Source: Minisyncoccota bacterium (GTDB taxonomy: Bacteria > Patescibacteriota > Minisyncoccia > UBA6257 > 2-01-FULL-56-20). From it: DNA of 62,851 bases. The translations under genes were made by a program, and so were the position numbers. Where the stretch lies: assembly GCA_031291905.1 (NCBI GenBank), contig JARLIC010000029.1, positions 1 through 62,851 on the forward strand, given 5' to 3'. A model generated the notes under the pieces. The model worked only from the letters and a program-made list of their open reading frames with translations, was not told where the DNA came from and ran no database searches. Below, piece by piece: positions 2,665 to 62,073 of this stretch (its first letter is position 1; each line of letters begins with the position of its first letter).

Positions 2665-3943
2665 GGGCGGCAAGCCGCTGTTCGGCGAGGTCGCGATCGC
2701 GGGCGCGAAGAACGCCGCGTCGAAGATGTTCGTGGCGTCGCTTCTGACCGACGAGCAGTGCATCTTCAAGAGTGTGCCGGCGATCGGCGAACTCGAGATC
2801 GTCGTGGAATTGCTGAGGACCATAGGCAGCCAGGTCGATATCGCGGGACCGACGGTGAGCGCGACCGCGAAGGAGATCGTGAACAATCGCGTGACGCAGC
2901 TTTCGCGCAAGAACCGCATTCCGATCCTCGCCCTCGGCCCCTTGCTCGCGCGCACGGGGGAGGCGGAAGTGCCGGTGCTCGGCGGCGACAAGATCGGTCC
3001 GCGCCCGGTGGATATCCACCTCGACGGACTCGCGAAGCTCGGCGCCCGCATTGAAGTGACCGAAAAAAGTTTTCATGCCTGGGCACCCGAGGGAGGTCTT
3101 CGAGGTGCGGAGATAGAGCTGCGCTTTCCGAGCGTCGGCGCCACGGAGAACATCATTCTTGCGGCCGTGCTCGCCCATGGAAGGACCGTCATCCGGAACG
3201 CCGCGCTCGAACCGGAGATCGTCGACCTCATCAAACTGCTCCAAAACATGGGCGCCATCATCGAACTCCATCCGCCGCGCACGATCATCATTGAAGGCGT
3301 GCCGAAACTTCACGGTACGACGCACCGCGTGATGCCCGATCGCAACGAGGCGGTATCGTTCGCCTGTCTTGCGATCGCGACGAACGGCCGCATCAAGCTC
3401 CGCGGCGCCGTCCAGGAGCATCTCATCACGTTCCTGAACACCGTGCGGCGGCTCGGCGGCGAGTACCAGGTGGACGAGGATGGCATCGCGTTCTGGCGCG
3501 CGCGCGAACTTTCGCCGGTCGAGATCGACACCGACGTACATCCGGGTTACATGACCGACTGGCAGCAGCCCCTCGGCGTATTGCTCACGCAGGCGAACGG
3601 CGTCTCGACGATCCACGAGACGATCTACGAAGACCGGTTCGCCTATACGAACGACCTGAACTCGATGGGAGCGGACATCACGGTATCGACGCAATGCCCA
3701 CCGGGCGCCCCGTGCCGCTTTGCGGGCCGGGGGTTGAACCATTTTGCGGTGATAAAAGGGGCAACGCCGCTTGCAAGCACAAATCTCGTTGTGCGCGATC
3801 TGCGTTCGGGCATCGTCGACATTCTTGCCGCACTCGTCGCGACCGGTGTTTCCGAGATCGACGGCGCGGACGAGATAGACAGGGGATACGAACATATCGA
3901 CGCAAGGCTGAGGCAGTTGGGTGCGGAGATAACCCGCGCCTGA
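2645..3943 (+). CDS. murA: UDP-N-acetylglucosamine 1-carboxyvinyltransferase
   Basis: MAKFIVKGGKPLFGEVAIAGAKNAASK start, 432 aa, EPSP-synthase/MurA fold signatures. It overlaps the glyQS end by 20 nt. Confidence 0.93.
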   Translation: MAKFIVKGGKPLFGEVAIAGAKNAASKMFVASLLTDEQCIFKSVPAIGELEIVVELLRTIGSQVDIAGPTVSATAKEIVNNRVTQLSRKNRIPILALGPLLARTGEAEVPVLGGDKIGPRPVDIHLDGLAKLGARIEVTEKSFHAWAPEGGLRGAEIELRFPSVGATENIILAAVLAHGRTVIRNAALEPEIVDLIKLLQNMGAIIELHPPRTIIIEGVPKLHGTTHRVMPDRNEAVSFACLAIATNGRIKLRGAVQEHLITFLNTVRRLGGEYQVDEDGIAFWRARELSPVEIDTDVHPGYMTDWQQPLGVLLTQANGVSTIHETIYEDRFAYTNDLNSMGADITVSTQCPPGAPCRFAGRGLNHFAVIKGATPLASTNLVVRDLRSGIVDILAALVATGVSEIDGADEIDRGYEHIDARLRQLGAEITRA

Positions 3944-4061
3944 TCCATATTTCGAACATTCTCTCGAGGACGGCGTCGAAACCTGCTGGTTTCGCGCCTT
4001 AGCACTCGGCGCCTACGCGCCTCCGTGATACCTCTCGAGAACGCTCGAAATATGGATCAGG
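3939..4061 (-). ncRNA. family A hairpin-apex element, copy 1 (conserved three-way-junction core on a long inverted repeat)
   Basis: Core 3970-4030 matches copies 2-4 when read on the minus strand. Arms 3939-3969 and 4031-4061 pair, with the outer 17 bp perfect. The left arm begins in the last murA codon plus the TGA stop. Confidence 0.55.
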
Positions 4062-4168
4062 CCACAATACTTTCCTTGCGCAACAATTGAGGACCTTCAG
4101 CGTAGCGACCCGGTCCGAAATGAGGAGATTTTTGCTTGCCTTCCCCGAAAGGATGTTCTGGAGGAGAA

Positions 4169-4197
4169 TTGCGCAAAGCCCCGTTTTCGCTTACAAT
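4169..4197 (+). promoter_or_regulatory. sigma70-like promoter of mreB (TTGCGC-17 nt-TACAAT), with the ATG 6 nt after the -10 box
   Basis: -35 at 4169-4174 and -10 at 4192-4197; the mreB ATG is at 4204, with no Shine-Dalgarno sequence between. Confidence 0.4.
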
Positions 4198-4203
4198 ATC
4201 GTT

Positions 4204-5211: not shown

Positions 5212-5221
5212 TTGCGTACGT

Positions 5222-9928: not shown

Positions 9929-10345
9929 ATGGCGACAAAAAAGAAAATGGGTAACAATGCAAAGGCGTGGGGCATTGGCGGCGCGGTGACCGCGGCGGCT
10001 ATCGCGGCAGCGGCGGGAGCGTATCTGATGTCGGACAAAAAGACGAAGGCAAAGGCAAAGAAGTGGGTCGTCGCGGCGCGCAAGGAGGTTGCAAAGAACG
10101 CGAAGATCGCAACGAAGCTCGGCGAGAAGGAGTACGGCCGCATCGTTGAGCAGGCGGTCAAGCACTACGGCTCAATGGAGAAGCTTACGGCCGCGGACAT
10201 CCTCGCCGCGGGAAAGGAACTGAAGGGCGAGTGGAGGAAGATCCAGGCCGAAGCGAAGAAGATAGCCAAGAAGGTCCCGATGAAGAAGGTTGCGGTAAAG
10301 AAGAAGCCCGTAATGAAAAAGAAGGCGGTAAAGGCAAGGAAATAG
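9929..10345 (+). CDS. hypothetical Lys/Ala-rich protein with one N-terminal hydrophobic segment
   Basis: GIGGAVTAAAIAAAAGAYLM segment followed by a K-rich low-complexity tail. Stop TAG at 10343-10345. Confidence 0.5.
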   Translation: MATKKKMGNNAKAWGIGGAVTAAAIAAAAGAYLMSDKKTKAKAKKWVVAARKEVAKNAKIATKLGEKEYGRIVEQAVKHYGSMEKLTAADILAAGKELKGEWRKIQAEAKKIAKKVPMKKVAVKKKPVMKKKAVKARK

Positions 10346-10346
10346 T

Positions 10347-10475
10347 TTGAATACAACAAAAAGGCATCTTCCTTGAGGGGTATCACGGAGCCGCGAAGGC
10401 GGCGAGTGCTAAGGCGCGAAACCAGCAGGTTTCGACGCCGTCCCCGAAAGGATGGTGCCTTTTTGTTGTATTCAA
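10347..10475 (+). ncRNA. family A hairpin-apex element, copy 2
   Basis: 20 bp perfect arms (10347-10366 and 10456-10475), continued by an imperfect stem. Core 10377-10445. It exactly fills the gap between two convergent stop codons. Confidence 0.55.
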
Positions 10476-11723
10476 TTATTCGTATCGCAACGCTTCTATC
10501 GGACTCTTCCGTGCCGCCTGTTGTGCCGGATAGATGCCGAACGCGATGCCGGTGATGCTCGAAACGGCGACGGCGAGCAGGATCGCCGACATGGGAAACT
10601 CGAACGTCCATACCACCGCAAATACTTTGGTGATAACAAGCCATGCCGCGCCCACCACGAGTCCGCCGACGAGAATGCCGATCACGCCCCCGATGACCGT
10701 AAGCATCACGGATTCCACCAGGAATTGCTGGAGGATGTCGTTATTGGTGGCGCCCACGGATTTGCGAAGCCCGATCTCCTTGGTGCGCTCGATCACCGAC
10801 ACCAGCATGATGTTCATGATGCCGATGCCGCCGACAATGAGCGAGATTGAGGCGATCGCGGCAAGGAAGAGCGTCAGGATGTTCGTGATGTTGCCAAGGA
10901 GCGAAAGCACGTCCTGCTGGGTCTCGATGGTGAAATCGTCCTTGTTGGAATCGGTGATGCTATGGTCCTGTTCAAGGATCGTCTGCACGCGCGCCTTGGC
11001 AAAATCGATGGTGTAAGTATCGTTCGCCTGCACCATGACGTCGGTGAAATAATCGGTGCCCAACATCTGCTTCTGTCCGACGGTGATCGGCACGAGCACG
11101 ATATTATCCTGGTCGATGCCGAACGCGCCGGTGCCTTTCGACTCGAGCACGCCCACCACGCGGAAATGGACGTTCTTCACCTGGATATACTGTCCGACCG
11201 GATCGGAGCCGGCACCAAAGAGCGTGTCGGCGAGCGAGGAGCCGATGACCGCCACATGATTGTACGACTGCACATCGGCGTCGCTGAAGGGATAGCCTTT
11301 CGCCACCACGAAGTTGCGCACCGTGAAGAAGTTGGCCGGCACGCCGTCGAAGGTGATCGTCTCGCTGTTGTCGCCGAAGGACGCCGCGCCCTGTCCGCGC
11401 GATTCCTCGGTGACCGCCGCGACCGAGGGATCGCGGCCCAGCGCGTCCACGTCGCGCTGCTTCAGGCTTGTGATGATGATGCCCTGCGCCGCGGCGGGGG
11501 ATGAGAACTTCCCGTTGTTCGAGCCGCCCGGGATCACGATGATCAGGTTCGAGCCGAGCCCCTGTACCTGGCCCAGGATGTAGTCCTGCGCCGAGGCGCC
11601 GATGGACATGAGGATGATGACCGACGAAATGCCGATCACGATGCCGAGCATCGTCAGAAGCGAGCGCATTTTGCCGTGCTTGAGCGTCGCCCGGGATGAT
11701 TTTACGAGATCGTTGACGCGCAT
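10476..11723 (-). CDS. ABC transporter permease, MacB/FtsX family
   Basis: MacB_PCD-type periplasmic domain between TM1 and the FtsX-type C-terminal helices. N-terminus LKHGKMRSLLTMLGIVIGISSVI. Confidence 0.9.
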   Translation of the reverse strand: MRVNDLVKSSRATLKHGKMRSLLTMLGIVIGISSVIILMSIGASAQDYILGQVQGLGSNLIIVIPGGSNNGKFSSPAAAQGIIITSLKQRDVDALGRDPSVAAVTEESRGQGAASFGDNSETITFDGVPANFFTVRNFVVAKGYPFSDADVQSYNHVAVIGSSLADTLFGAGSDPVGQYIQVKNVHFRVVGVLESKGTGAFGIDQDNIVLVPITVGQKQMLGTDYFTDVMVQANDTYTIDFAKARVQTILEQDHSITDSNKDDFTIETQQDVLSLLGNITNILTLFLAAIASISLIVGGIGIMNIMLVSVIERTKEIGLRKSVGATNNDILQQFLVESVMLTVIGGVIGILVGGLVVGAAWLVITKVFAVVWTFEFPMSAILLAVAVSSITGIAFGIYPAQQAARKSPIEALRYE

Positions 11724-20263: not shown

Positions 20264-20305
20264 GGATAACGAAACACTCGAAGCGATTCGAGTATTTCGT
20301 TATCC
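20264..20305 (-). terminator. long palindromic hairpin overlapping the murG stop codon
   Basis: 19 nt arms (GGATAACGAAA[C/T]ACTCGAA) around a GCGA loop. The arm contains the last murG codon and TAA. Confidence 0.5.
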
Positions 20306-31116: not shown

Positions 31117-31206
31117 CCAAATAGCTAAATACCAAATAAGGACCAATATCCAAGTTGAAAATTTCAAAATCGGAAGTCGGTCCTTATTTGGTATTTAGCT
31201 ATTTGG
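31117..31206. repeat. 28 bp perfect inverted repeat made of two copies of the ~32 nt motif, with a 34 nt loop
   Basis: CCAAATAGCTAAATACCAAATAAGGACC at 31117-31144 and its reverse complement at 31179-31206. Confidence 0.65.
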
Positions 31207-32299: not shown

Positions 32300-33208
32300 T
32301 TAGGAGGCTTTTGTTTTGTCTTGCTGGGGACTGATAAGCACAAGCGCGGGACTCGCGATGAAGATGGAGGAATAGATGCCCGTGACGACACCGACGAGCA
32401 GTACGAGCACGAAATACCGCAGATCGGCGGGACCCATGAAGTAGAGTGCGAGGAGCACAAGGATGAGCGTGAGCGAAGTATTGACCGAGCGCGCGATGGT
32501 CTGGTTCACGCTGTCGTTCACGATCGTATCGAACGGCGTCTTGCCGCGATGGTTCATGATATTCTCGCGGATGCGGTCGAATACCACGATCGTATCGTGG
32601 ACGGAAAAACCCATCACGACGAGCAGCGCGACGATTGAGTTGCTGTCGATCTCCACGTTGCTGACATGACCAAGGATGGCAAGGAGTCCGGCCGGAATGG
32701 CGACGTCATGGAACAATGTGAGAAGCGTGATCCATCCGTACTTCCACGAGCTGATCGGGCGCGACGCCTTGCGGAACGCGAACGCGATGTACAGCGAGAT
32801 GCCGATCAGCACGAGGATGATCGCGATGATCGCGGAGCGGAGCAGGCTCGCACCCACCGACGGGCTTATCGACTGGAAGCTGAGCTCCTGGAGCGACGGC
32901 CACGTTCCCTTGAGGGCGGTGAGGTCCGCCTGGTGCGCATCCTCGGTGACCGTACCGAACCGCACGAGGAAGGTATGATTGGTCGCGTCGTAGTTCGTCT
33001 GCGCATCCGGGATGTGCAACGCGTTCACGAACTCGCTCTGCACGTCCGCGGTGGAAAGGCTCTGGGCCGGCACCGAGAACTCCCACAGCGTCCCCCCTTT
33101 GAACTCGGCACTCTCTTTGAAGTGGAACGTGGCAATCGAAACAAGCGCGATGCCGACAAGGATCGTCGAGAACGTGAACCAGATTTTTTTATGACCTACG
33201 ATGTTCAT
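32300..33208 (-). CDS. secF: protein translocase subunit SecF
   Basis: 302 aa, 6 TM helices, SecD/SecF C-terminal motifs (DTIVVFDRIRE). Confidence 0.95.
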   Translation of the reverse strand: MNIVGHKKIWFTFSTILVGIALVSIATFHFKESAEFKGGTLWEFSVPAQSLSTADVQSEFVNALHIPDAQTNYDATNHTFLVRFGTVTEDAHQADLTALKGTWPSLQELSFQSISPSVGASLLRSAIIAIILVLIGISLYIAFAFRKASRPISSWKYGWITLLTLFHDVAIPAGLLAILGHVSNVEIDSNSIVALLVVMGFSVHDTIVVFDRIRENIMNHRGKTPFDTIVNDSVNQTIARSVNTSLTLILVLLALYFMGPADLRYFVLVLLVGVVTGIYSSIFIASPALVLISPQQDKTKAS

Positions 33209-33240
33209 TGGATCTTGTTTGGGATTTAGCTATTTGGAGT
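33209..33240 (-). repeat. copy of the recurrent ~32 nt motif (ACTCCAAATAGCTAAATCCCAAACAAGATCCA)
   Basis: Spans the last secD codons plus the TAG stop and ends at the secF ATG. Confidence 0.5.
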
Positions 33241-34486
33241 TCGGTGCTTGCGCCGCCGCCGGTTTATCTTTTATGAACAGCCTCAGGAACAACCGGGTCG
33301 TCGTGATGGCGCTGAAAAGGCTCACCACCACACCGATAAGGAGCGTGAGCGCGAATCCGCGCACAAAGCTCGAGGTGAAGTAATAAAGGATGATCGCGGT
33401 GATGATTGTGGACATGTTCGAGTCGCGGATGGACGGCCATGCGCGGCGGAACCCTTCCTCCACCGCCGAAGCGTGCGGGAGGCCCCGTTTCAGCTCCTCT
33501 TTGATGCGCTCAAAGATGAGCACGTTGGCATCCACGGCCATGCCGATGGTAAGGATGAAGCCGGCGAGACCCGCGAGCGAGAGCGTGATCGGGATCACCT
33601 TGAAGACGCCGAGGGTAAGTGCGACATAGATGACAAGCGCGAGTGCCGCGAAAAGTCCGAAAAGGCGGTAATAGAAGATCATGAAAAGCATCACGAGCAA
33701 CGTGCCGATCAATCCCGCGAACGCCACTTCCTTCAACGAGTTGGTGCCGAGCGTGGGGCTGATCGTCTGCTGGCTTACGAGCGTGATCGGCGCAGGCAGT
33801 GCGCCGGCGTTGAAGCGCTGGGCGAGCTGCTGGGCCGAAGCGATCGTGAAGCCGCCGCTGATCACCGCCTTGCCGTCGGGAATTTCCTCCTGCACCGTGG
33901 GCGCCTCGATCAACTGGTTGTCGAGGAAGATTGCAAGCGGCTTGCCGACGTTCGCCTTCGTCATCTCATCGAAGATCTGCGAACCATCCTTATTGAAGGT
34001 GACCGTGACCTGCGGCGCGTTCGTCGTCTGATCGAAGGTCATCTGCGCGCCGGTGATGTACTGGCCCGTAAGATTCGTATAAATGTACTGTGATGTCGAG
34101 CCGTTGGTCTCAACCTCGCGGAAGTCCAAAAGCGGCGTCTGGCCGATCTGATTGATCGCGTCGTTCACGTTGTTCACGCCGGCGAGCTCGACGATGAGCT
34201 GTGCCTGATTGCCCGATTGTGCGGTATATATCTGCGGCTCGCTCACGCCGAAGAGGTTGACGCGTTTGTCGATGACGTCGCGGAGACCGGCGATCACCGA
34301 ACTCTGGTCGGTGGAAGAAACATTCGAAAGGTCGACCTGGTACACGAGATGGCTTCCGCCCACGAGATCAAGCCCGAGCTTCCACGGCATCCACTTTGTA
34401 CCGATCCCCTTCGGATAGACAAAAATACCCGCCATGACGGCGACGATTACGATCAGTGATAAGAATAGGCCCGGATGGCGCCTCAT
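33230..34486 (-). CDS. secD: protein translocase subunit SecD
   Basis: 418 aa, periplasmic P1 domain, C-terminal TM bundle with DANVLIFERIKEE. Confidence 0.95.
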   Translation of the reverse strand: MRRHPGLFLSLIVIVAVMAGIFVYPKGIGTKWMPWKLGLDLVGGSHLVYQVDLSNVSSTDQSSVIAGLRDVIDKRVNLFGVSEPQIYTAQSGNQAQLIVELAGVNNVNDAINQIGQTPLLDFREVETNGSTSQYIYTNLTGQYITGAQMTFDQTTNAPQVTVTFNKDGSQIFDEMTKANVGKPLAIFLDNQLIEAPTVQEEIPDGKAVISGGFTIASAQQLAQRFNAGALPAPITLVSQQTISPTLGTNSLKEVAFAGLIGTLLVMLFMIFYYRLFGLFAALALVIYVALTLGVFKVIPITLSLAGLAGFILTIGMAVDANVLIFERIKEELKRGLPHASAVEEGFRRAWPSIRDSNMSTIITAIILYYFTSSFVRGFALTLLIGVVVSLFSAITTTRLFLRLFIKDKPAAAQAPNSK

Positions 34487-34494
34487 AGGAAAAT

Positions 34495-34523
34495 ATGATA
34501 CCAGAGTACAAAAGAAAGTTCAA
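34495..34523 (-). promoter_or_regulatory. sigma70-like promoter of secD (TTGAAC-17-TATCAT), with the ATG 8 nt after the -10 box
   Basis: -35 at 34518-34523, -10 at 34495-34500, secD ATG at 34486. Confidence 0.4.
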
Positions 34524-34539
34524 GGTGCCGGCATTCCAC

Positions 34540-34566
34540 AAAAAAAGGCGCACATTCAAGTGCGCC
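34540..34566 (-). terminator. intrinsic terminator after the 34580-35089 gene
   Basis: GGCGCAC-UUGAAU-GUGCGCC followed by U7 on the minus strand. Confidence 0.65.
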
Positions 34567-34579
34567 ATATGTCCGTTTC

Positions 34580-35089
34580 CTACGCGGTGCCGATTTCCGT
34601 GCCCGCAACCGGGAACGTGTATCGCTTCGGGAAAAGACGCAGTACGATGCGTTCCTTCAGCGAAGGGTCCGGCTTCCCATAGCGAGCCAGGTCATGGATC
34701 GCCACGGAGTGCACGCCGACGATTTCAAGAAATTCCTTGGAGCCATAGGGTTCCATCAGGATAAAACTGGCGCTTTCCGTCCGCGGCAGCTCATCGACGC
34801 CCGTCATGTAATTCTTCCAAAAGACGTGCCTTTCCACAAAGCGGAGACCGAATTCCCCATGCAGTGAACAAAGCGCAACGTTCTTCGGCTCGCCGTACGG
34901 ATCGTCGATTGCGAGCCTGCCGAGATCGACCGGAATCCCTTCGTCAAAAATCTGGGTTGATGGGATTTCGCCCATGAAGACCCACTGCGACGACTGGCAT
35001 ATCTCGGTACGAAATTCGTCCATCGGATAACCTCCTTGTTTGAACAAGGCCCGGACAGCGTTCAGGCCGTAGAACGTCGGATTGCCCAT
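34580..35089 (-). CDS. hypothetical cytoplasmic protein
   Basis: The ATG at 35089 is preceded by AAGGAGG. It has its own promoter and terminator. No family recognised. Confidence 0.5.
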   Translation of the reverse strand: MGNPTFYGLNAVRALFKQGGYPMDEFRTEICQSSQWVFMGEIPSTQIFDEGIPVDLGRLAIDDPYGEPKNVALCSLHGEFGLRFVERHVFWKNYMTGVDELPRTESASFILMEPYGSKEFLEIVGVHSVAIHDLARYGKPDPSLKERIVLRLFPKRYTFPVAGTEIGTA

Positions 35090-35145
35090 AGAAGCCTCCT
35101 TGCCCCATGAAATTGAATGGTGGCGGTTCAATATTACTAATTGCT

Positions 35146-35174
35146 GTTATACCAATACCGATGAAATCGGTCAA
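35146..35174 (-). promoter_or_regulatory. sigma70-like promoter (TTGACC-17-TATAAC) for the 34580-35089 gene
   Basis: -35 at 35169-35174 and -10 at 35146-35151 on the minus strand. Confidence 0.4.
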
Positions 35175-35181
35175 GAACGGG

Positions 35182-35298
35182 GTGGACCTGGGGGGAATCG
35201 CCCGCGAGTCCCCTGCTCGCCGTCGCTCGCAGGGGCTCTGGGCACCGGCTCACAAGATTTTCCTGCTGGAAAATCTTGCTCCGTCGTCCGATTCCCTC
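35182..35298 (-). ncRNA. family B element carrying a 19 nt direct copy of the tRNA-Ala 3' end
   Basis: 35182-35200 is identical to 35351-35369 (the tRNA-Ala 3' end). 35286-35298 is an inverted partial copy of the T arm. The interior has the GGAG-hairpin(CCAGCAGG loop)-TGAG module shared with family A. Confidence 0.45.
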
Positions 35299-35308
35299 AA
35301 TTCATAAG

Positions 35309-35348
35309 CTGATAAAAAAGACGCAGATATCTGCGTCTTTTTTATCAG
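35309..35348 (-). terminator. perfect 18 bp palindromic terminator after tRNA-Ala
   Basis: CTGATAAAAAAGACGCAG-ATAT-CTGCGTCTTTTTTATCAG. Confidence 0.7.
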
Positions 35349-35351
35349 TCG

Positions 35352-35422
35352 TGGACCTGGGGGGAATCGGACCCCCATCTATCGGATGCAAACCGATTGC
35401 TCTGCCACTAAGCTACAGGCCC
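35352..35422 (-). tRNA. tRNA-Ala (anticodon TGC)
   Basis: Hand-folded cloverleaf with acceptor GGGCCTG/CAGGTCC including the G3:U70 Ala identity pair. Anticodon loop is TTTGCAT. T loop is TCCGATT (C at position 55). No CCA is encoded. Confidence 0.88.
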
Positions 35423-35431
35423 GAAGCGAGG

Positions 35432-35464
35432 AGAAAATGAATAAATCCCATTTATTCATTTTCT
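35432..35464 (-). terminator. hairpin terminator after the M50 protease gene
   Basis: AGAAAATGAATAAAT-GGG-ATTTATTCATTTTCT on the minus strand. Confidence 0.5.
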
Positions 35465-35566
35465 ACGAGTAAGGGCATGTGCGCACCGCACCAGGCCCGT
35501 TACCGCACCAGCTTATCAGGAAAAATAATTTTCGTAAACACCCGGATGCTCCCCCGCTGCCGCGGT

Positions 35567-36256
35567 CTATACCCCGAAGATATGCCCGGTGAACACAGCA
35601 AAGAGCGCGTTGATCACCGGAAAGATGACCGAATATCCGAAGAACACGAAGATCAGGACGAGGATCAATCCCCAGCGCTCGAGGAAATACATTATGCGAT
35701 ACGAGGTTTGCGTCGGCGGAAGGACCAGAAAAAGCACTTTAGAACCGTCGAGCGGCGGGATCGGCACGAGGTTGAATATGCCGAGCACGATATTGATATA
35801 GACAATGATGAGAAAAAGGAAGAAGAAGCGTTCGGGCGCGGTGGCAAGCGTGGGAATGCCGCCCGACGCGACCGCATTCCACAAGCCGTTCTTCACGGCG
35901 GAGGATATCGGGAGAAGGACGCTCAGTATCCCGAAAAGGAGCGCGATAAGCAGGTTGGTGACCGGACCGGCAAACGCCACCTTCACGCTGTCCGTCCTCG
36001 GGTTCCTGAGATTGTTCGGATTATACGGGACCGGCTTGGCGCCCGCAAAGAAGAATCCCGTGGTAAAGAACAGAAGGAGCGGCATGATGACCGAAAGGAA
36101 CGGATCGAGGTGCTTCAACGGGTTGAGCGTGAGCCTCCCTGCCCTTTCCGCGGTGTCGTCGCCGAGATGCAGCGCCTCAAAACCGTGCGCCACCTCGTGG
36201 AGGATCGCGGAGTAAATAAGCACGATGAACTCGAATAATGCGATTGCAATTTCCAT
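35567..36256 (-). CDS. site-2 protease family (M50) membrane metalloprotease
   Basis: HEVAHGFEALHLGD HExxH motif, NPLKHLDP motif, LVPIPPLDGSKV motif, polytopic. Confidence 0.85.
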   Translation of the reverse strand: MEIAIALFEFIVLIYSAILHEVAHGFEALHLGDDTAERAGRLTLNPLKHLDPFLSVIMPLLLFFTTGFFFAGAKPVPYNPNNLRNPRTDSVKVAFAGPVTNLLIALLFGILSVLLPISSAVKNGLWNAVASGGIPTLATAPERFFFLFLIIVYINIVLGIFNLVPIPPLDGSKVLFLVLPPTQTSYRIMYFLERWGLILVLIFVFFGYSVIFPVINALFAVFTGHIFGV

Positions 36257-36295
36257 GGGAATAATTATACCATTGAGGCAAGCGGATCGCCTACC

Positions 36296-36370
36296 GCCCT
36301 CGTAGTGAAACGGATATCACGCGTGGCTTCGAACCACGAGCTTGGGGTTCAACTCCTCACGAGGGCACCA
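36296..36370 (+). tRNA. tRNA-Arg (anticodon TCG), CCA encoded
   Basis: Acceptor GCCCTCG/CGAGGGC, anticodon stem CGTGG/CCACG with loop CTTCGAA, T loop TTCAACT, 3' ACCA. Confidence 0.88.
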
Positions 36371-36371
36371 C

Positions 36372-36407
36372 AAACATAAAACACTCCATTCGGAGTGTTT
36401 TATGTTT
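36372..36407 (+). terminator. hairpin terminator after tRNA-Arg
   Basis: AAACATAAAACACTCC-ATTC-GGAGTGTTTTATGTTT. Confidence 0.65.
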
Positions 36408-36418
36408 ACTTGTTCATA

Positions 36419-36478
36419 GTGAGGAGTTGAACGGCGGAGTAATATTTTTCACCAGAGCCGCGGGCAACTCCTCACGAG
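36419..36478 (+). ncRNA. family B-like degenerate element carrying copies of the tRNA-Arg 3' end
   Basis: GTGAGGAGTTGAAC (an inverted copy) and CAACTCCTCACGAG (a direct copy of 36350-36363) flank GGC-GGA-G...GA-GCC. Confidence 0.35.
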
Positions 36479-36552
36479 ACTTTTCACTCTGCGGGGGCTG
36501 AAGGAGTCGGACCTTCGACAAGCGTTTTGGAGACGCTTATTATACCGTTTAA

Positions 36553-36846
36553 CTAAACCCCCTTGTATCTCAAAAATGCTTTCGCAATTGCCATAAGTCT
36601 TCGCGCAACATCACAACTGTGGTAGCGAATCCTTATACAACCCTGATAATTTGGCCGGATTCTTTTCCCACTGTTTGCCTTTTGGTATGGTTTTATAAAT
36701 TGCTCCTTATTAATATCGGTTACTTTTGACCAAAAATCAAGTTGTTTTTTCGGGGAATGATACGAATGTAAGTGTATGCAAGGGCGAAATTTACGCTCAT
36801 CCAACACGAAGCACTTTCGAATAAGAATATGCCATGAAAAGATCAT
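36553..36846 (-). CDS. hypothetical ORF in a low-GC island (possible endonuclease remnant, very uncertain)
   Basis: It is the only ORF in a visibly AT-rich ~350 nt stretch. A weak resemblance to the second half of LAGLIDADG-type proteins (..LDFWSKVTDINKEQFIKPY..GCIRIRYHS) rests on memory only. Confidence 0.3.
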   Translation of the reverse strand: MIFSWHILIRKCFVLDERKFRPCIHLHSYHSPKKQLDFWSKVTDINKEQFIKPYQKANSGKRIRPNYQGCIRIRYHSCDVARRLMAIAKAFLRYKGV

Positions 36847-36871
36847 GGCATATCGAATATTAAAAGATTAT

Positions 36872-36904
36872 AAAATGCGCCTACCCGAGGGCAAGCGCAT
36901 TTTT
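36872..36904 (-). terminator. hairpin terminator overlapping the rpmG stop codon
   Basis: AAAATGCGC...GCGCATTTT arms; the upper arm overlaps the TAA stop by 2 nt. Confidence 0.5.
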
Positions 36905-37082
36905 ATTTACCGGTGATCCTTGCCTCTTTGTGAGTCGTTTCGAGACGGCACCAGTTGCAGAACTTCTTGAGCTCGATCTTCCGTTCCACCACCTTCTTGT
37001 TCTTGTTCGTATAATAATTACGCCGTTTACAAACGGAACAGCGCAACGTTATAAGCCTGTCGGCATGCTTGATCTTTGCCAT
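36903..37082 (-). CDS. rpmG: 50S ribosomal protein L33
   Basis: MAKIKHADRLITLRCSVCKRRNYYTNKNKK..ELKKFCNWCRLETTHKE, with four Zn-ligand Cys. ATG at 37082. Confidence 0.9.
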   Translation of the reverse strand: MAKIKHADRLITLRCSVCKRRNYYTNKNKKVVERKIELKKFCNWCRLETTHKEARITGK

Positions 37083-38616: not shown

Positions 38617-38691
38617 ATTAACTGCTTACTTAATATATCCAAATAGCGAGAAAATTGCCAATTTATTTCTAAAGAATTGTAAGATCTCTGG

Positions 38692-38822
38692 GTTAATAAT
38701 ACAGCCCGCCTCCCCGTCTTGAGGGGGATCTCGGAGCCGCGCAGGCGGCGAGAGCTAAGGTGCGCGCCCAGTAGGGCGCGACACCGTCCCCGAAAGACGG
38801 GGAGGCGGGCTGTATTATTAAC
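38692..38822 (+). ncRNA. family A hairpin-apex element, copy 3
   Basis: 29 bp perfect arms (38692-38720 and 38794-38822) and core 38721-38793. An imperfect stem extension reaches roughly 38660-38855. Confidence 0.6.
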
Positions 38823-38901
38823 GAGTTCTTTACTATAATTTAGAAGAAATTAATGTTCTGCATCCTCGCTGGTCGAGGGATAACACGCGAACACCCTATC
38901 C

Positions 38902-41900: not shown

Positions 41901-42123
41901 CTCGAAGATGAAGAAGATCATGACCAAGAACGGCCAGCCGATGATCTTCGCGACCATCGAGGACAAATCCGGACAGGCCATCGAAGTGGTCGTGTTCAAC
42001 AGCGTGCTCGAAAAGACCTCGTCCGCATGGGTCGAGAATGCCTGCGTCATCGTGGACGGCCGGATATCGCACCGTGACGGCCAGGCGAAAATGCTCTGCG
42101 AGAACGCAAAACGCCTCGATTGA
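38902..42123 (+). CDS. dnaE: DNA polymerase III alpha subunit
   Basis: 1073 aa. PHP domain (FTHLHVHSHYSLLDG), palm and fingers (GPGRGSAAGSLVSY, PDIDIDF), HhH, and an OB fold at the C-terminus. Confidence 0.97.
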   Translation: MPNPAPRFTHLHVHSHYSLLDGLTKIDQLVGRAKELGLDSIALTDHGVLYGAVEFYKAAKKAGIKPVLGVEAYIAPRDRFSRESNERYAHLVLLCENETGWKNLIKLVSKANLEGFYYKPRMDKDLLREHHEGLIALSACLGGEVARALTNNNFEEAKKVALEYQDIFGAGNYFLEIQKHPNIPESEKIEPLLVKLSHETGIPLVTTQDSHYTHSDDAEYHDVLLAVQTGNQLTDDDRMSMKSDDFSILSPQDMLAKFSHLEGGAEAVARTAEIADRCNVTLELGAALLPDFPKPDGKTANAYMRELVEERLPNKFPPAVMSDPAKAKEVRTRLEYEIGVIEKTGFADYFLIVQDLIQWAKLHGIAVGPGRGSAAGSLVSYILDITDIDPLRYDLIFERFLNPERIQMPDIDIDFSDARRGEVLAYAREKYGEDHVARIITFGTMAARAAIRDAGRAMGFSYAFCDQIAKLIPLNPTQGMKEGWLDECLKKVQELKALYDTNPEAKRLIDTARHLEGVARHASVHACGTVIAKEPLMERVPLQFAPQEKDTIITQFEGHAVEDIGLLKIDFLGLKNLTIIEEAVRLIRELHGVTIDVSRLPLDDAKTYELLQRGDTTGVFQFESSGMRRYMKDIKPTELEDLIALVALFRPGPMELIPSFIKRKHGQERIVYLHPKLEPILKNTYGIGVYQEQMMRIARDLAGYSLAEADTLRKAIGKKIKSLLDEQKVKLTEGMIKNGIPTKIAKEIWELFPPFARYGFNKSHAACYAMIGYQTAYLKANYPEEFTAALLNSEMHDIERISFLIQEAKAAGVEILAPDINMSFVNFTPENEKIRFGLLAIKNVGSEITRAIIEERARGGPFKTFEEFLTRIQHKDLNKKSLESLVKSGAFDSLGIERKTALENMDDILKFANAMKRSSMDQANSLFGISAPTLTLKLKPAEPASRGEKLVWEKELIGFFISDHPMNGHKETLEKYKAKPIAEVLASNDEKTIMRTAGLVSKMKKIMTKNGQPMIFATIEDKSGQAIEVVVFNSVLEKTSSAWVENACVIVDGRISHRDGQAKMLCENAKRLD

Positions 42124-42138
42124 GGCGTTTTCTTTTCC

Positions 42139-47124: not shown

Positions 47125-47240
47125 ACCCTTAAAGATACTAAAAAAGTGCATATGTTTCTCGCCAATTCGTCTTACTATCAGCTTGATTATCCCGGTATTA
47201 TCCGCGACAAACAGAAGGATGGTATAAAGAAGAAGATAGG

Positions 47241-47373
47241 TATCGAATAACAAAATGGCTCGGGTTTTTTGAAAGGTGTGTCGGAGGCACGAAGGTGCCG
47301 AGACCCAAGGCGCGAAACCAGCAGGTTTCGATGCCGTCCTTTCAAAAAACCCGAGCCATTTTGTTATTCGATA
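47241..47373 (+). ncRNA. family A hairpin-apex element, copy 4
   Basis: 36 bp perfect arms (47241-47276 and 47338-47373) and core 47277-47337. The right arm covers the secY stop and its last codons. Confidence 0.6.
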
Positions 47374-48635
47374 CCTTCGTACTCGCGAACCGTCAGCTGC
47401 GAATCAACCTGCCTCATCGTCTCAAGCGCGACGGCCACCACGATCAGAAGAGCGGTACCGCTGATGCTGACCACCGTAACGCCGGTAATCGCCTGCACGA
47501 GGGTCGGAAGGATCGCGATAAGCCCGAGAAAGATCGCGCCGAAGAACGTGATACGGTTCATGACCCCTTTGAAGAATATCTCGGTGCTCTCGCCCGGACG
47601 AATGCCCGGCACGAATCCCCCGCTCTGTTGAAGGTTCTTTGCGACCTCCTCCGGATTGAATGTGATCGCGGTATAGAAATAGGTGAAGGCAAACACGAGC
47701 AGAAAGTAGAAGATGCCGTAGTAGAGCTGGTTCGCGACGAATCCCGTAGCGAAGTTATTGATAATCGTGCCCCATTTGACCGAGAAGAGCACGACGATCT
47801 GCGCGATGAACTGCGGAACAAGCATGACCGAGATCGCGAAGATGAGTGGAATCATACCCGCCTGGTTCACTTTGAGCGGAAGATAGCTCTGTGAGCCGCC
47901 GTATATCTTGTTGCCGCGCACGCGTCGCGCATACGCCACCGGGATCTTGCGTTCGCCCTCGTTCAGATAAACGATGCCCGCAATGAGCAGGACGGCCACG
48001 ACGATGAATCCGGCGTATGCGGTGAGCAGTTGTGGCGTGTAGGATGCGACCGCGATACCGAACGTCGAAGGTAACTTGCTGATGATGCCCGCCAGAATGA
48101 TGAGCGAAATACCGTTGCCTACCTTCTCCTCGCTGATAAGCTCACCGAGCCACAGCGCAAGCATGGAGCCGCATGTGATCACAATGACGTTGCGGATGAG
48201 GCTGAACGCATCGGGCTGGGCGATCACGCCCTGCGATATGAGCAGCTTCAGAAAACCGTACGACTCGACGAACGCGAACGGCACCGTGAGCAGGCGCGAA
48301 TACTGGTTGAACTTTGCCTGACCGCGCGCACCTTCCTCGTAGTACATCTCTTTCATCTTCGGGAATATGATCGTCATGAGCTGCATGACGATGGTGGCAG
48401 TGATATACGGACCGACGCCGAGCATCACGACCGAAAGCGTGGAAAGGCCTCCTCCCGAGAAGAAGTTGAAGAACCCGAACAGTTGGTTGGAATTGAAGTA
48501 GTTCTGGAGCCGCACCGCATCGACGCCCGGGATCGGGATCGCCGCAAGCACGCGATAGGCCACCAAAAGCCCGAGGACAATAAGAATCTTATTGCGAAGC
48601 TCCTTTACTTTGAATATTTGCAAAAACCTTTCCAT
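47364..48635 (-). CDS. secY: preprotein translocase subunit SecY
   Basis: 423 aa, 10 TM helices, conserved GVGPYITATIVMQL and plug or hinge regions. Confidence 0.97.
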   Translation of the reverse strand: MERFLQIFKVKELRNKILIVLGLLVAYRVLAAIPIPGVDAVRLQNYFNSNQLFGFFNFFSGGGLSTLSVVMLGVGPYITATIVMQLMTIIFPKMKEMYYEEGARGQAKFNQYSRLLTVPFAFVESYGFLKLLISQGVIAQPDAFSLIRNVIVITCGSMLALWLGELISEEKVGNGISLIILAGIISKLPSTFGIAVASYTPQLLTAYAGFIVVAVLLIAGIVYLNEGERKIPVAYARRVRGNKIYGGSQSYLPLKVNQAGMIPLIFAISVMLVPQFIAQIVVLFSVKWGTIINNFATGFVANQLYYGIFYFLLVFAFTYFYTAITFNPEEVAKNLQQSGGFVPGIRPGESTEIFFKGVMNRITFFGAIFLGLIAILPTLVQAITGVTVVSISGTALLIVVAVALETMRQVDSQLTVREYEGIE

Positions 48636-48653: not shown

Positions 48654-48714
48654 GTTTTATAGTATCACTTTTGGGGCGATAAATCTTCTCGACCCAAAAG
48701 TGATACTATAAAAC
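48654..48714 (-). terminator. 22 bp perfect palindrome overlapping the rplO stop codon, in the rplO-secY spacer
   Basis: Arms at 48654-48675 and 48693-48714 with a 17 nt loop. The right arm contains the last rplO codons and TAG. Confidence 0.5.
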
Positions 48715-62041: not shown

Positions 62042-62073
62042 AAAAAATCCCCGTTCAAAACGGGGATTTTTTT
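62042..62073. terminator. bidirectional intrinsic terminator between convergent genes
   Basis: AAAAAATCCCCG-TTCAAAA-CGGGGATTTTTT. Confidence 0.65.

Follow-up and report, generated by a model that had tools for sequence, protein, structure and literature searches.

A complete and perfect hairpin (26-bp arms and a 79-nt core) separates the tRNA-Thr gene (- strand) from dnaE (+ strand) in this Minisyncoccota genome, and its core is one of exactly four copies of a sequence family, termed family A, in the window, the 62,851-nt stretch of DNA analyzed in this study. The core comprises positions 1-79 of our covariance model. The given strand is the one on which the core was first read, namely the - strand for copy 1 and the + strand for copies 2-4. 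The neighboring genes and their strands were settled with Pfam. All four intergenic loci of the preliminary description were present, and their hairpins are as follows:

3938..4062, - strand: copy 1 hairpin, core 3961-4039 (covariance model and fold)
10345..10477, + strand: copy 2 hairpin, core 10372-10450 (covariance model and fold)
38692..38822, + strand: copy 3 hairpin, complete and perfect
47238..47376, + strand: copy 4 hairpin, core 47268-47346 (covariance model and fold)

Copy 1 lies directly downstream of aroA (+ strand, ending at 3943), to which it is antisense; it does not lie between convergent genes, its right neighbor being mreB on the + strand. Copy 2, the arms of which include AAAAAGGCA...TGCCTTTTT, exactly fills the gap between a gene at 9929-10345 (+ strand) and a convergent MacB/FtsX-type permease gene at 10476-11723 (- strand). 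The given strand of copy 3 is directed at dnaE. Copy 4 is located downstream of secY (- strand, ending at 47364) and is antisense to it; the four final codons of secY fall in the proximal arm, and the distal arm repeats them in inverted form.

The features of copy 3 and its surroundings are listed below; the parts within the core were assigned from the alignment and the model.

38718..38796, + strand: core, 104.5 bits (alignment, covariance model, and pair counts)
38718-20/38794-96, + strand: P0
38721-22/38792-93, + strand: GA/GA
38723-26/38788-91, + strand: P1
38727-29, + strand: J1/2
38730-32/38752-54, + strand: P2a
38733-35 opposite 38750-51, + strand: internal loop, GGA opposite GA
38736-40/38745-49, + strand: P2b, with loop GCAG at 38741-44
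38755-58, + strand: J2/3, CTAA
38759-62/38782-85, + strand: P3a
38763-69/38774-80, + strand: P3b, with loop AGTA at 38770-73
38781, + strand: bulged A
38786-87, + strand: J3/1, GT
38660..38855, + strand: imperfect outer inverted repeat (MFE fold and cross-genome flank alignment)
38632..38661, - strand: promoter-like site TTGGCA-18-TATATT (10/12 consensus match only)
38834..38839, + strand: TATAAT box (sequence and cross-genome flanks)

The imperfect extension of the stem to approximately 38660-38855, noted previously, was recovered by the MFE fold, and conservation of its flanks (..AAAGAATTGTAAGA.. and ..TTCTTTACTATAAT..) extends to related genomes. The position of the TATAAT box 3' of copy 3 is conserved in seven related genomes (as TATAAT, TATCAT, or TATACT), and this box is likely the -10 element of dnaE, in which case the copy 3 hairpin lies upstream of the dnaE transcription start. 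The promoter that had been proposed for copy 3 itself, TTGCCA(38655-38660)-19-TAAGAT(38680-38685), was not recovered by a promoter scan. The TTGGCA-18-TATATT site, a better match than that proposal, overlaps its + strand hexamer and faces tRNA-Thr.

Census and fold of the family A core

Degenerate patterns for the two core halves matched the window four times, for which dinucleotide shuffles expect 0.40 and 0.00 matches, and a scan of the window with the covariance model, filters off, returned the same four loci at 96-108 bits (next best, 16.9 bits). The model, built from the window copies, then revealed approximately 90 copies with 60 distinct sequences (27 + 55 + 8 matches) at 52-108 bits, with noise at or below 21 bits. 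The search of related metagenomes that had been proposed found homologues well clear of noise; these came from Minisyncoccia/Paceibacteria MAGs and from peat or soil metagenomes, at 0-4 copies per ~20-60 kb, and the guess that the element is restricted to CPR/Patescibacteria was borne out. A blastn search of phage and plasmid collections with the core produced zero matches, and the sole core-pattern match among viral contigs (L004) scored 14.7 bits by the model, which is noise.

The core resembled no known ribozyme, riboswitch, or housekeeping RNA, as the preliminary description had stated. Rfam 15 at the gathering threshold identified only 5 tRNAs in the whole window, and a permissive scan (E up to 10) with copy 2 and the commonest variant yielded only noise, the best scores being 20.9 bits for rncO (cut-off 43) and at most 19 bits for miRNA-precursor models (cut-offs of at least 142). 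The literature on CPR non-coding RNAs and repeats, branched terminators, very small mobile repeats, intervening sequences (IVS), and IS elements in REPs contained analogues only and no description of family A. The analysis confirmed that family A is a real, undescribed, and strongly conserved Y-shaped nucleic-acid module of ultra-small Patescibacteria.

The full elements of the four window copies folded as a long stem with a three-way-junction cap, with an MFE of -79 to -103 kcal/mol and z-scores of -11 to -14. Among the 60 distinct homologues, double-sided compensatory changes were found in 14 of the 17 pairs predicted without a supplied structure. In the model alignment, 96.3% of the cells were paired versus approximately 40% in slid controls, and 0 of 500 shuffles reached the observed score. 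The differences between copies listed earlier for P2b, P2a, P3b, and P3a were correct on alignment, and the compensatory changes claimed from four copies persisted as covariation in the larger set. Judged from these alignments, covariation is strong and present in every helix of family A. The helices vary by compensatory substitution, whereas sequence conservation is seen at the unpaired nucleotides, in the junction and in the GGA/GA internal loop; this internal loop was kept in 58 of 59 copies. The tandem GA/GA loop, also described earlier, was present in copy 3 but in only 17 of the 60 copies, most of which have Watson-Crick pairs there, and by this alignment it is a subfamily trait.

Two known motifs were considered for the P2 region. 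In a kink-turn, the C and NC stems are separated by a 3-nt bulge and, after it, sheared G-A pairs in tandem; GGA opposite GA permits tandem G-A pairs, but the bulge is only 1 nt. A hammerhead-like reading of the GA-flanked P2 was rejected because P2a intervenes and no hammerhead model matches.

The core helices contained 653 Watson-Crick, 8 G-U, and 6 A-C pairs. Because G-U and A-C pairs occurred at 8:6 in the core and 15:6 in the arms, and the helices were 94-98% Watson-Crick, the earlier argument that G-T pairs are tolerated on the given strand only is weak. Such nearly pure Watson-Crick helices would be no less compatible with constraint on DNA or on both strands than with constraint on RNA. 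The given strand was the better folder in 58 of the 60 cores, and purines occupied 73% of its unpaired positions.

Gene boundaries, polarity, and exchange of the hairpin tip

The hairpins that carry the core are laid out as an A-rich tract, a GC-rich stem of ~9 bp, the tip, the stem, and a T-rich tract. At 10-21 nt from the core, the 5' arm was 39-46% A and the 3' arm 38-45% T, and A4 (5') combined with T4 (3') was found in 17 contexts and its mirror image in 6. A T4 or A4 run was present in 22-29 of 59 hairpins, and many had no clean U-run. Plain terminators of the same layout occur in the window at 42108-42131 and 36372-36407. These data suggest that the carrier hairpins have the sequence features of intrinsic terminators in a statistical sense only, many single copies lacking a clean run, and that their overall plan is that of a bidirectional intrinsic terminator in which the core takes the place of the loop.

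Hairpins marked the ends of protein genes, tRNAs, and 23S rRNA, and others preceded 23S, 5S, and dnaE; the boundary genes included the rRNA operon, secY, fusA, and dnaE, and at many loci the stop codon fell in the last 0-15 nt of the hairpin. The region upstream of the hairpins had no conserved promoter-like motif, the 15 nt on their 5' side being merely A-rich. The 23S and 5S copies were located 20-70 nt outside the 23S ends and before 5S, outside the rRNA model matches. The mirrored copies across 23S were also considered as a long-range processing stem; the 11-nt motifs GCAAGTCAGCA and TGCTGACTTGC do pair, but by inspection the arms of the two flanking hairpins are not mutually complementary, which favors local hairpins. 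A terminator acting in the sense direction before 23S and 5S would seem harmful unless read through or processed.

The given strand was directed towards the abutting gene at approximately 27 loci versus away from it at 3, all three being well-supported copies. Protein 3' ends accounted for 16 towards and 3 away, and tRNA 3' ends for 7 towards and 0 away; the copies at the 23S 3' end, 23S 5' end, 5S 5' end, and dnaE 5' end were all directed towards the gene. These comparisons showed the cap to be oriented, with its purine-rich strand directed at the abutting gene and P3 nearest to it, so that most host transcripts would carry the complement of that strand. Orientation set by replication was ruled out, copies 1 and 2 being opposite within one GC-skew domain and adjacent rRNA-operon copies alternating. 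In approximately 24 of ~30 informative loci, the hairpin followed a gene, tRNA, or 23S with the given strand antisense to it, which does not support the proposed discrete RNA transcribed from the given strand by its own promoter. The hairpins of copies 1 and 2, moreover, touch or overlap the neighboring stop codons, which leaves no room for a promoter.

Each window core stands on a locus-specific arm pair of 23-30 bp, and in most copies the arms run 11-41 bp (median 22 bp) past the model P0 helix. The arms are unrelated between copies, as had been described. At the orthologous dnaE site, the identity was 0.73 for the core, ~0.7-0.8 for the flank, and 0.47 for the arms, the last being equal to that of shuffled sequence; within each genome, the arms remained 90-100% mutually complementary despite their divergence to randomness between species. 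In secY, synonymous differences in the last codons were mirrored in the distal arm of the copy-4-type hairpin. Exact-match comparisons, a stringent test, revealed zero matches of the four inner arms to viral contigs and no recurrence of any arm in the remainder of the 1.09 Mb of compared sequence; they gave no support to the arms being acquired, spacer-like sequences. Logan contigs of the same strain stop exactly at the arm/core boundary of copy 4.

Comparison of orthologous hairpins revealed different tips. Among eight genomes, the dnaE site held family A in five, a diverged Y in L136, a remnant in L135, and nothing in L140; the copies in L137, L141, L142, and L143 were orthologous to copy 3 and in the same orientation, and those in L137, L141, and L143 formed a locus-specific subtype. 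The greA terminator was plain in L135 and carried family A in L136, L143, and L117. The tip of the 23S leader hairpin was family A in L082, L079, and L035 and module B in L016, and that of a hairpin downstream of a tRNA was family A, module B, or a plain loop. These comparisons support the previous idea of an element that targets hairpin loops. They showed, at the level of aligned loci, that the tip behaves as a cassette, one and the same hairpin carrying family A, a second family (B), an enlarged A-like Y, or only a plain loop, and that the hairpin, with its base and flanks orthologous between species, is an older host feature than the tip. P3 was identical in copies 1, 2, and 4 of the window genome and differed in the orthologue of copy 4 (L009:1093-1171), which suggests recent spread or conversion. 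Of 67 contexts, 2 had direct repeats of at least 3 nt at the edges of the hairpin (mean of the permutation control, 1.2), and none had them at the edges of the core. The annotated neighborhoods (~190 kb) yielded no candidate binding protein or mobilizing enzyme; they contained only a DGR, an rve integrase, and a serine recombinase, each without a link to family A copies. No Y1 (RAYT) transposase was found among ~150 Pfam-called genes in the L135-L143 loci, which cover a fraction of each genome.

Interpretation and known systems

The preliminary interpretation was right in part: a new, conserved, and covarying element is present, whereas the discrete RNA with its own promoter and the strand argument from G-T pairs did not hold. 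Our preferred explanation, which we advance tentatively at somewhat less than even confidence, is that family A is a ~79-nt Y-shaped, oriented cap in the loop of terminator or insulator hairpins and that it is inherited, lost, and replaced as a cassette; family A is not a stand-alone small RNA gene. The carrier hairpin would terminate or insulate transcription, or give a stable RNA end, in both directions. The cap would be an add-on, its invariant purine loop and junction being read by a trans-acting factor, and such recognition would make the hairpin direction-specific: the stable purine-loop Y would be present in RNA made towards the gene, and its weaker complement in RNA made away from it. 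The cap may spread or be replaced through DNA-level copying into hairpin tips, and arm pairing may be kept by self-templated (fold-back or quasi-palindrome) correction and not by slow compensatory selection.

A selfish, non-autonomous mobile element without a host role, inserting into the apical loops of palindromes as safe sites with a symmetric target, is an unlikely but serious alternative; its fold would be conserved only for a trans-acting enzyme that recognizes the folded single strand (DNA or RNA) at mobilization. Multiple dispersed copies, patchy presence at orthologous hairpins, alternative tip families per site, and a sharp repeat boundary at which assembly contigs break (exactly at the arm/core junction) all fit such an element, as does the P3 shared by copies 1, 2, and 4 but not by the L009 orthologue, and L135 and L142 resemble an empty and a filled site, with an asymmetric remnant. 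Insertions of IS elements into REP hairpins (PMC1525189) and of IIC introns at terminator stem-loops (PMC1702495) provide precedents. However, family A lacks target-site duplications and has no terminal repeats other than the P0/P1 helix, the annotated neighborhoods associate no transposase, RAYT, or reverse transcriptase with the copies, and the core is absent from the phage and plasmid collections. An inert insertion would be expected to decay, so the retention of locus and orientation across species with randomized arms and the conservation of unpaired nucleotides count against this reading; the dnaE-upstream subtype (L137, L141, and L143) indicates vertical descent, and a gene-directed polarity of ~27:3 is unexpected for a symmetric target unless the mechanism itself is polar.

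Two further alternatives concern the level at which the Y acts. We consider it quite improbable that family A is a DNA-level element, that is, a Y fold in ssDNA or an extruded cruciform at which a structure-specific protein (a nucleoid protein, a recombinase, or a factor of replication or repair) would act, with apparently compensatory changes arising from templated quasi-palindrome correction. The pair counts, G-U and A-C being about equally rare in helices almost entirely Watson-Crick, imply that both strands can fold; self-templated DNA synthesis is the easiest explanation for perfect-palindrome arms that turn over rapidly yet stay complementary, and copy 3 and its orthologues apparently occupy the space between two divergent promoters, on the upstream side of the dnaE -10 box, where little transcription is expected. 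Against a DNA-level site, orientation is independent of the GC-skew domain (copies 1 and 2, alternating rRNA-operon copies), the strand-asymmetric purine loops and gene-directed polarity require an extra assumption, attC R-boxes (0/67) and the GTAG tag (only 2/67) are essentially missing, and most copies lie exactly at expected RNA 3' ends. Least probable, in our estimation, is an independent structured RNA gene on the given strand, started by its own promoter at the first stem base and acting as a ribozyme or protein-binding sRNA, possibly released by RNase III. The strong covariation, the conserved purine-rich loops of the given strand, and its thermodynamic advantage in nearly all cores are compatible with such a gene; long perfect stems are plausible RNase III substrates, and the given strand is the sense strand in the 23S and 5S leaders. 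Yet the hairpins adjoin or overlap stop codons on one or both sides with no promoter room, no promoter-like motif is conserved upstream, the copy 3 promoter was not recovered and a better one faces the opposite way, ribozyme families gave no match even at E up to 10, and an orientation tied to the neighboring gene is needless for an autonomous gene.

More speculatively, and at a probability we consider low, family A and its sister tips (B and the enlarged Y) might represent a new kind of genetic element: an oriented cap that colonizes the loops of gene-boundary hairpins and constructs or renews its arms by fold-back copying of the gene-proximal flank, the capped hairpins being used by the host as directional insulators. 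Hypervariable, self-correcting palindromes would then surround a conserved Y-shaped recognition core, and RNA entering and RNA leaving a gene would bear different caps.

Patescibacteria constitute a large share of bacterial diversity, and to our knowledge almost nothing has been established about transcription punctuation in their very compact genomes. The orientation rule of family A is predicted by no current model of terminators or repeat elements. Should the cap confer direction on terminator hairpins, or bring in a factor for processing or termination, gene boundaries would be under an additional, lineage-specific layer of control. Should it instead be a mobile cassette that targets loops, it would represent a new form of DNA parasitism, with the one neutral position of an essential hairpin as its niche. 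The arms, hypervariable but perfectly paired, offer a natural system for studying templated palindrome correction. In practice, short-read assemblies of these genomes break predictably at the repeat.

Among known systems, bidirectional intrinsic terminators share with the carriers an A-tract, a GC-rich stem, and a T-tract, as well as positions at or over stop codons, between convergent genes, and after tRNAs. They differ in having a loop of 3-8 nt where family A carriers have a conserved, oriented 79-nt three-way junction; the carrier arms are much longer (total helix, ~30-45 bp), many carriers have no clean U-run, and some are located upstream of 23S, 5S, and dnaE. The IVS in 23S rRNA helices 25/45 are structured extras that replace a pre-existing hairpin tip; they are sporadic, with different families at one tip, and have been described as selfish, their long stems being cut by RNase III (PMC4990558). 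Family A is likewise a structured, sporadic sequence at a pre-existing hairpin tip with alternative families per tip. However, IVS lie inside mature rRNA helices and are excised, whereas family A is intergenic, including rRNA leaders and trailers, was inside a mature rRNA helix at none of the loci examined, and is only 79 nt long with gene-directed polarity.

REP, BIME, and REPIN sequences are short extragenic palindromes, repeated at the 3' ends of genes and in the gaps of convergent gene pairs; roles in termination and mRNA stability have been proposed for them, and they are spread by a domesticated enzyme (PMC3333891, PMC2817692, PMC3116915). Family A carriers are also repeated extragenic palindromes in these positions, but REPs conserve the entire palindrome together with a GTAG or CGTC tag, whereas family A has locus-specific arms and a conserved tip, a GTAG tag near the hairpin base in only 2 of 67 contexts, and a lower copy density. 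MITEs (including Correia and RPE-type elements) are similarly small, non-coding, multi-copy, and intergenic and form a long hairpin when transcribed. Their conserved terminal inverted repeats and target-site duplications contrast with the variable arms and conserved 79-nt center of family A, in which even orthologous arms are as different as shuffled sequence and target-site duplications are lacking; the earlier remark that the architecture is opposite to that of a classical MITE was accurate. Integron attC sites carry R''/R' boxes (RYYYAAC ... GTTRRRY), both of which were present in 0 of 67 hairpins, and unlike attC cassette arrays, family A copies are dispersed among housekeeping genes. IS1397/ISKpn1 and IS110-family elements insert into REPs (PMC1525189), and group IIC introns target terminator stem-loops, inserting after the hairpin (PMC1702495). 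As with these elements, the target of family A would be a pre-existing palindrome or terminator; they are autonomous, exceed 1 kb, and carry their own enzyme, whereas family A is 79 nt long and non-coding, and where the introns are placed after the hairpin, family A replaces its loop.

The family A core and its relatives

The four loci of family A claimed in the preliminary description were all present in the window and read as described. A gap-free alignment of the four 79-nt cores placed them as follows:

3961-4039, minus strand: core of copy 1
10372-10450, plus strand: core of copy 2
38718-38796, plus strand: core of copy 3
47268-47346, plus strand: core of copy 4

Both halves of the core, P2 and P3, were also searched for by degenerate pattern; either pattern matched exactly four times in the 62.8-kb window, versus 0.40 and 0.00 matches in dinucleotide-preserving shuffles. 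A covariance model derived from this alignment and run on the window with filters off returned just the four copies at 96-108 bits; the runner-up scored 16.9 bits. All four complete elements were predicted to fold into a long stem with a three-way-junction cap (MFE -79 to -103 kcal/mol; z-scores -11 to -14 versus shuffles), and the imperfect outer stem extension proposed for copy 3 (about 38660-38855) was recovered in the fold. A minus-strand ORF (4057-5268, 403 aa, no Pfam match) was rejected as the neighbour of copy 1, being a spurious product of high GC content; the true right neighbour is mreB (4087-5211, plus strand, Pfam E = 1.6e-124), and copy 1 is thus located downstream of aroA. Mechanical ORF lists are unreliable in this genome (58% GC).

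We scanned one genome per GTDB species with a degenerate pattern that fixed only unpaired invariant positions, and 81 loci were obtained. The covariance model split them cleanly into 27 matches at 62-108 bits and a remainder at 21 bits or less. All of the true matches came from small-genome Patescibacteria MAGs, labelled Minisyncoccia, Paceibacterota, Parcubacteria or, for chromosomes of roughly 0.8-0.9 Mb, uncultured bacterium. A tighter pattern retrieved 49 loci with 55 covariance-model matches from JGI metagenomes, and eight further copies lay in neighbourhoods fetched through DnaE homologues, that is, without selection for the motif; homologues at 72-93% identity had source names of Minisyncoccia, Paceibacterota or Patescibacteria.

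When the first 27 copies were aligned to the model, paired cells amounted to 96.3% versus about 40% in slid controls, double-sided changes occurred in 16 of 26 pairs, and none of 500 shuffles reached the observed covariation score. Since this alignment is itself model-fitted, the test was repeated on 60 distinct sequences by using MAFFT and RNAalifold with no structure supplied. The results revealed helices P2a, P2b, P3a and P3b again, with compensatory double changes in 14 of the 17 predicted pairs. The proposal of a new conserved structured element with compensatory helices was therefore upheld in larger homologue sets. Rfam 15, the check called for at the outset, yielded no match at gathering or permissive threshold; annotated phage and plasmid collections also yielded none, and no description of family A was found in the published literature searched.

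The internal loop GGA opposite GA was kept in 58 of 59 copies. The P2 loop read GAAG (48 copies), GCAG (6) or GTAG (4), the P3 loop AGCA (43) or AGTA (13), and the junction strand J2/3 CCAA (40) or CTAA (10). The tandem G-A loop described at the base of P1 exists in some copies, but in just 17 of 60; most have Watson-Crick pairs there. Two divergent relatives from other genomes (L134:8934-9048 and L136:9706-9932, a tip upstream of dnaE) retained the internal loop, the junction, P1, the Y shape and CGGAG/CGAG, with P2 lengthened by an extra sub-hairpin and with different terminal loops, which argues that the terminal loops are dispensable. The L136 tip fell under the detection threshold of the model, and family A is hence wider than counted.

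The preliminary description had used G-T pairs to argue for the strand on which it wrote the core, hereafter the given strand. This argument proved weak, since a larger sample gave G-U to A-C mismatch ratios of 8:6 for the core and 15:6 for the arms, with helices that were 94-98% Watson-Crick. The given strand has independent support from folding energy and purine-rich unpaired positions: 58 of 60 cores folded better on it, by 3.1 kcal/mol on average, and purines made up 73% of the positions that it leaves unpaired.

Carrier hairpins and their orientation

The window genome is generally characterised by long palindromes at gene boundaries. The following long, near-perfect intergenic palindromes in the window lack the core:

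48654-48714, core-less palindrome
35309-35348, core-less palindrome
20264-20305, core-less palindrome
36372-36407, core-less palindrome
35432-35464, core-less palindrome
31117-31206, core-less palindrome
62042-62072, core-less palindrome

Their arms measured 14-45 nt and their loops 0-4 nt. Several follow tRNA genes at a distance of 2 nt, and one occupies the rplO-secY gap inside the ribosomal-protein operon. Ordinary terminators (A-tract, GC stem, loop, T-tract) were also present in the window, such as 42108-42131 directly after dnaE.

Across 59 unique family A contexts, approximately 9 bp beside the core were GC-rich; in the stretch 10-21 nt away from the core, A made up 39-46% of the 5' arm and T 38-45% of the 3' arm. 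Bidirectional intrinsic terminators are laid out in this way, the core here taking the place of the loop, as in the arms of copy 4 (AAAATGGCTCGGG...CCCGAGCCATTTT) and copy 2 (AAAAAGGCA...TGCCTTTTT). Statistically, the carriers have the sequence features of intrinsic terminators, and they are thus putative terminators. The stop codons of the genes for EF-G, SecY, PNPase, S1, L9, L7/L12, GreA, AroA, ATP synthase gamma, RNase J, the DnaE C-terminus and a PilB-like ATPase were located at or under hairpins, and tRNA-linked hairpins lay 15-25 nt beyond tRNA 3' ends.

For polarity, abutting genes were clustered into orthologous groups and wrong-frame ORFs were removed by Pfam; four convergent pairs were uninformative. 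Among independent loci at the 3' ends of protein genes, 16 had the given strand running towards the neighbouring gene, and so antisense to it, and 3 had it running away; one of these 3 (L104) is probably a chimeric contig joined via the repeat. All seven independent tRNA-downstream loci had the given strand towards the tRNA, and upstream of dnaE the module was sense-oriented in every genome carrying it. The rule that the given strand points towards the gene with P3 proximal was obeyed by about 27 loci, with 3 exceptions.

The rRNA operon of OY970358 (loci L082 and L017) read, in its first half, tRNA, hairpin with antisense A, about 900 nt, hairpin with sense A, GCAAGTCAGCA and 23S, and in its second half 23S, TGCTGACTTGC, hairpin with antisense A, hairpin with sense A and 5S. 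The 11-nt motifs GCAAGTCAGCA (L082:4286-4300) and TGCTGACTTGC (L017:665-680) are mutually complementary and probably form the 23S processing stem, as in the classical case. Module-capped hairpins bracket this stem on both sides in mirror orientation. The 23S rRNA gene itself contains a group I intron (Rfam RF00028, 65.7 bits; L082:6327-6540).

Replication direction was rejected as the cause of polarity: copies 1 and 2 share a GC-skew domain in opposite orientations, and neighbouring copies alternate inside the rRNA operon. GC skew in the window changes sign at about 33000-37000: it is about +0.01 to +0.05 before the switch and about -0.06 to -0.08 after it. The switch lies next to a five-tRNA cluster and a GC dip (0.52), and may mark a replication terminus or origin.

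Arms, tips and their exchange

At the dnaE site, the distal flank (..AAGWTCTGTAAA..), the proximal flank (..GCTGTATT..), the TATAAT box and the leader AATGTTCTGCATCCTCGC... were alignable between genomes. Cores had a mean identity of 0.73 versus 0.61 +/- 0.03 when shuffled, and arms 0.47 versus 0.46 +/- 0.08, the random level; within each genome the arms were 90-100% mutually complementary. Downstream of secY, the proximal arm comprises the last four secY codons (G I E stop), and synonymous secY differences between the window and L009 were mirrored in the distal arm; SecY of L135 has the same C-terminus and the hairpin is missing. These findings revealed that the gene-proximal arm is native sequence and the distal arm its inverted copy, and that pairing renewal far outpaces the build-up of wobble intermediates. 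We infer that pairing may be renewed through DNA-level self-templated (fold-back or quasi-palindrome) correction; the alternative is compensatory selection on a hairpin that has to fold on both strands.

The dnaE sites of L135 (AGCGGATACATGC-CTCCGCT-GTATTCC) and L142 (AGCGGAGATATGCGT-[core]-ACGCATATCTCCGCT-GTATTCC) read as a near empty/filled pair, the L135 remnant holding 13 nt of the 5' arm and just 6-7 nt of the 3' arm. A leader motif (TTAATGTTCTGCATCCTCGCTGGTCGAGGGATAACACGCGAACACC, window 38850-38895, with a small hairpin CCTCGC..GCGAGG) also occurs just upstream of dnaE in L136, L137, L138, L141 and L143, but in neither L135 nor L142. A conserved TATAAT-like box precedes the motif, which may regulate dnaE in cis.

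Tips varied on shared stems. The 23S leader hairpin was common to four genomes, its outer stem orthologous with paired changes; three carried family A and the fourth, L016, an unrelated 58-nt module B, although its 23S groups with the A-bearing genomes. Module B (TTTTTGACGG...CCGTCAAAAA around a small hairpin) occurred twice, the copies inverted relative to each other:

L016:1963-2021, module B
L016:3010-3050, module B

They differ by a compensatory change (CAGG/CCTG versus CACG/CGTG), and both lie at tips where the related L082 has family A. The tRNA-downstream hairpin of the same operon ends in an A variant in L082; L016 has B there, and L079 a plain loop of 17 nt. At the greA terminator, L135 has a plain hairpin whose loop is 2 nt long, and L136, L143 and L117 carry A. 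The secY terminator carries A at six loci, the window among them; L143 has a long plain hairpin there and L135 has none. The dnaE site holds A in the window, L137, L141, L142 and L143, with a diverged enlarged Y in L136, a mini-palindrome in L135 and nothing in L140.

Possible roles and known systems

The account that we tentatively prefer, at slightly short of an even chance, is that family A is not an autonomous sRNA gene but an oriented Y-shaped cap carried by bidirectional terminator/insulator hairpins. The cap would be passed down, lost or swapped as a cassette, and would be recognised by a trans-acting factor via the invariant purine internal loop and the junction. Long orthologous retention is seen in the secY, fusA, tRNA-Ile, 23S-leader and dnaE copies, which are common to species whose DnaE is 80-84% identical to that of the window or whose secY genes share about 76% nucleotide identity, and the dnaE copies of L137, L141 and L143 form one locus-specific subtype, which argues for vertical descent. 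A purely selfish insertion that targets hairpin loops is possible and, on balance, unlikely. A sign of spread or conversion is the identical P3 of window copies 1, 2 and 4, which differs from that of copy 4's orthologue and recurs in the L142 dnaE copy. No target-site duplications, attC boxes or REP tags were found at family A copies, and no linked transposase in about 190 kb of annotated neighbourhoods; copy density was 0-3 per about 20 kb at unselected loci versus 4 per 63 kb in the window. Syntenic neighbourhoods contain a DGR-like pair (RVT_1 fragments and bAvd), large serine recombinases in small islands beside rpmG and, directly following dnaE, an rve integrase; none adjoins a family A copy:

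L141:21054-22489, mobile or diversifying gene
L136:3979-5613, mobile or diversifying gene
L142:7146-8831, mobile or diversifying gene
L137:13218-14111, mobile or diversifying gene

The stand-alone sRNA or ribozyme of the preliminary description seems very improbable. It would draw on the better fold of the given strand. Where that strand is antisense to the host gene, abundant mRNA or tRNA 3' transcripts would carry the reverse complement, and the given strand would come from polymerases moving towards the gene. The TTGCCA-19-TAAGAT promoter suggested for copy 3 did not appear in the promoter-scan output; a better site in the same hexamer region (38661-38632, minus strand, 10/12) is directed at tRNA-Thr. 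Beyond the hairpin lies

38834-38839, TATAAT box downstream of the copy 3 hairpin, position conserved in seven relatives

and its location suggests that the copy 3 hairpin may lie outside the dnaE transcript altogether. A protein site at the DNA level (ssDNA or cruciform), with apparent covariation from templated correction, we consider quite improbable; the rapid renewal of arm pairing suits it. These readings partly overlap, and a mobile cap adopted by the host would fit most of the data.

Assembly gives a further sign of spread or conversion. Logan contigs L001-L003, which carry the window's exact SecY and represent the same strain, stop exactly at the last hairpin-arm base, where the core begins, as expected of a multi-copy repeat. 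Family A fragments assemblies of these genomes and may cause chimeric joins, one of which L104 resembles.

Family A belongs to the broad kind of repeated structured elements at gene boundaries. Like 23S intervening sequences (PMC4990558), it replaces a hairpin tip, but those lie inside rRNA and family A does not. REP, BIME and REPIN elements (PMC3333891, PMC2817692, PMC3116915) are similar in location and proposed roles, whereas the family A palindrome is unconserved and has no tag. REP-targeting IS elements and group IIC introns (PMC1525189, PMC1702495) likewise use palindromes as targets, but family A has no terminal repeats, target-site duplications or coding capacity. We regard it as rather unlikely that family A stands apart as a category of its own, as a cap that colonises loops, generates its own arms and gives gene boundaries a directional mark.
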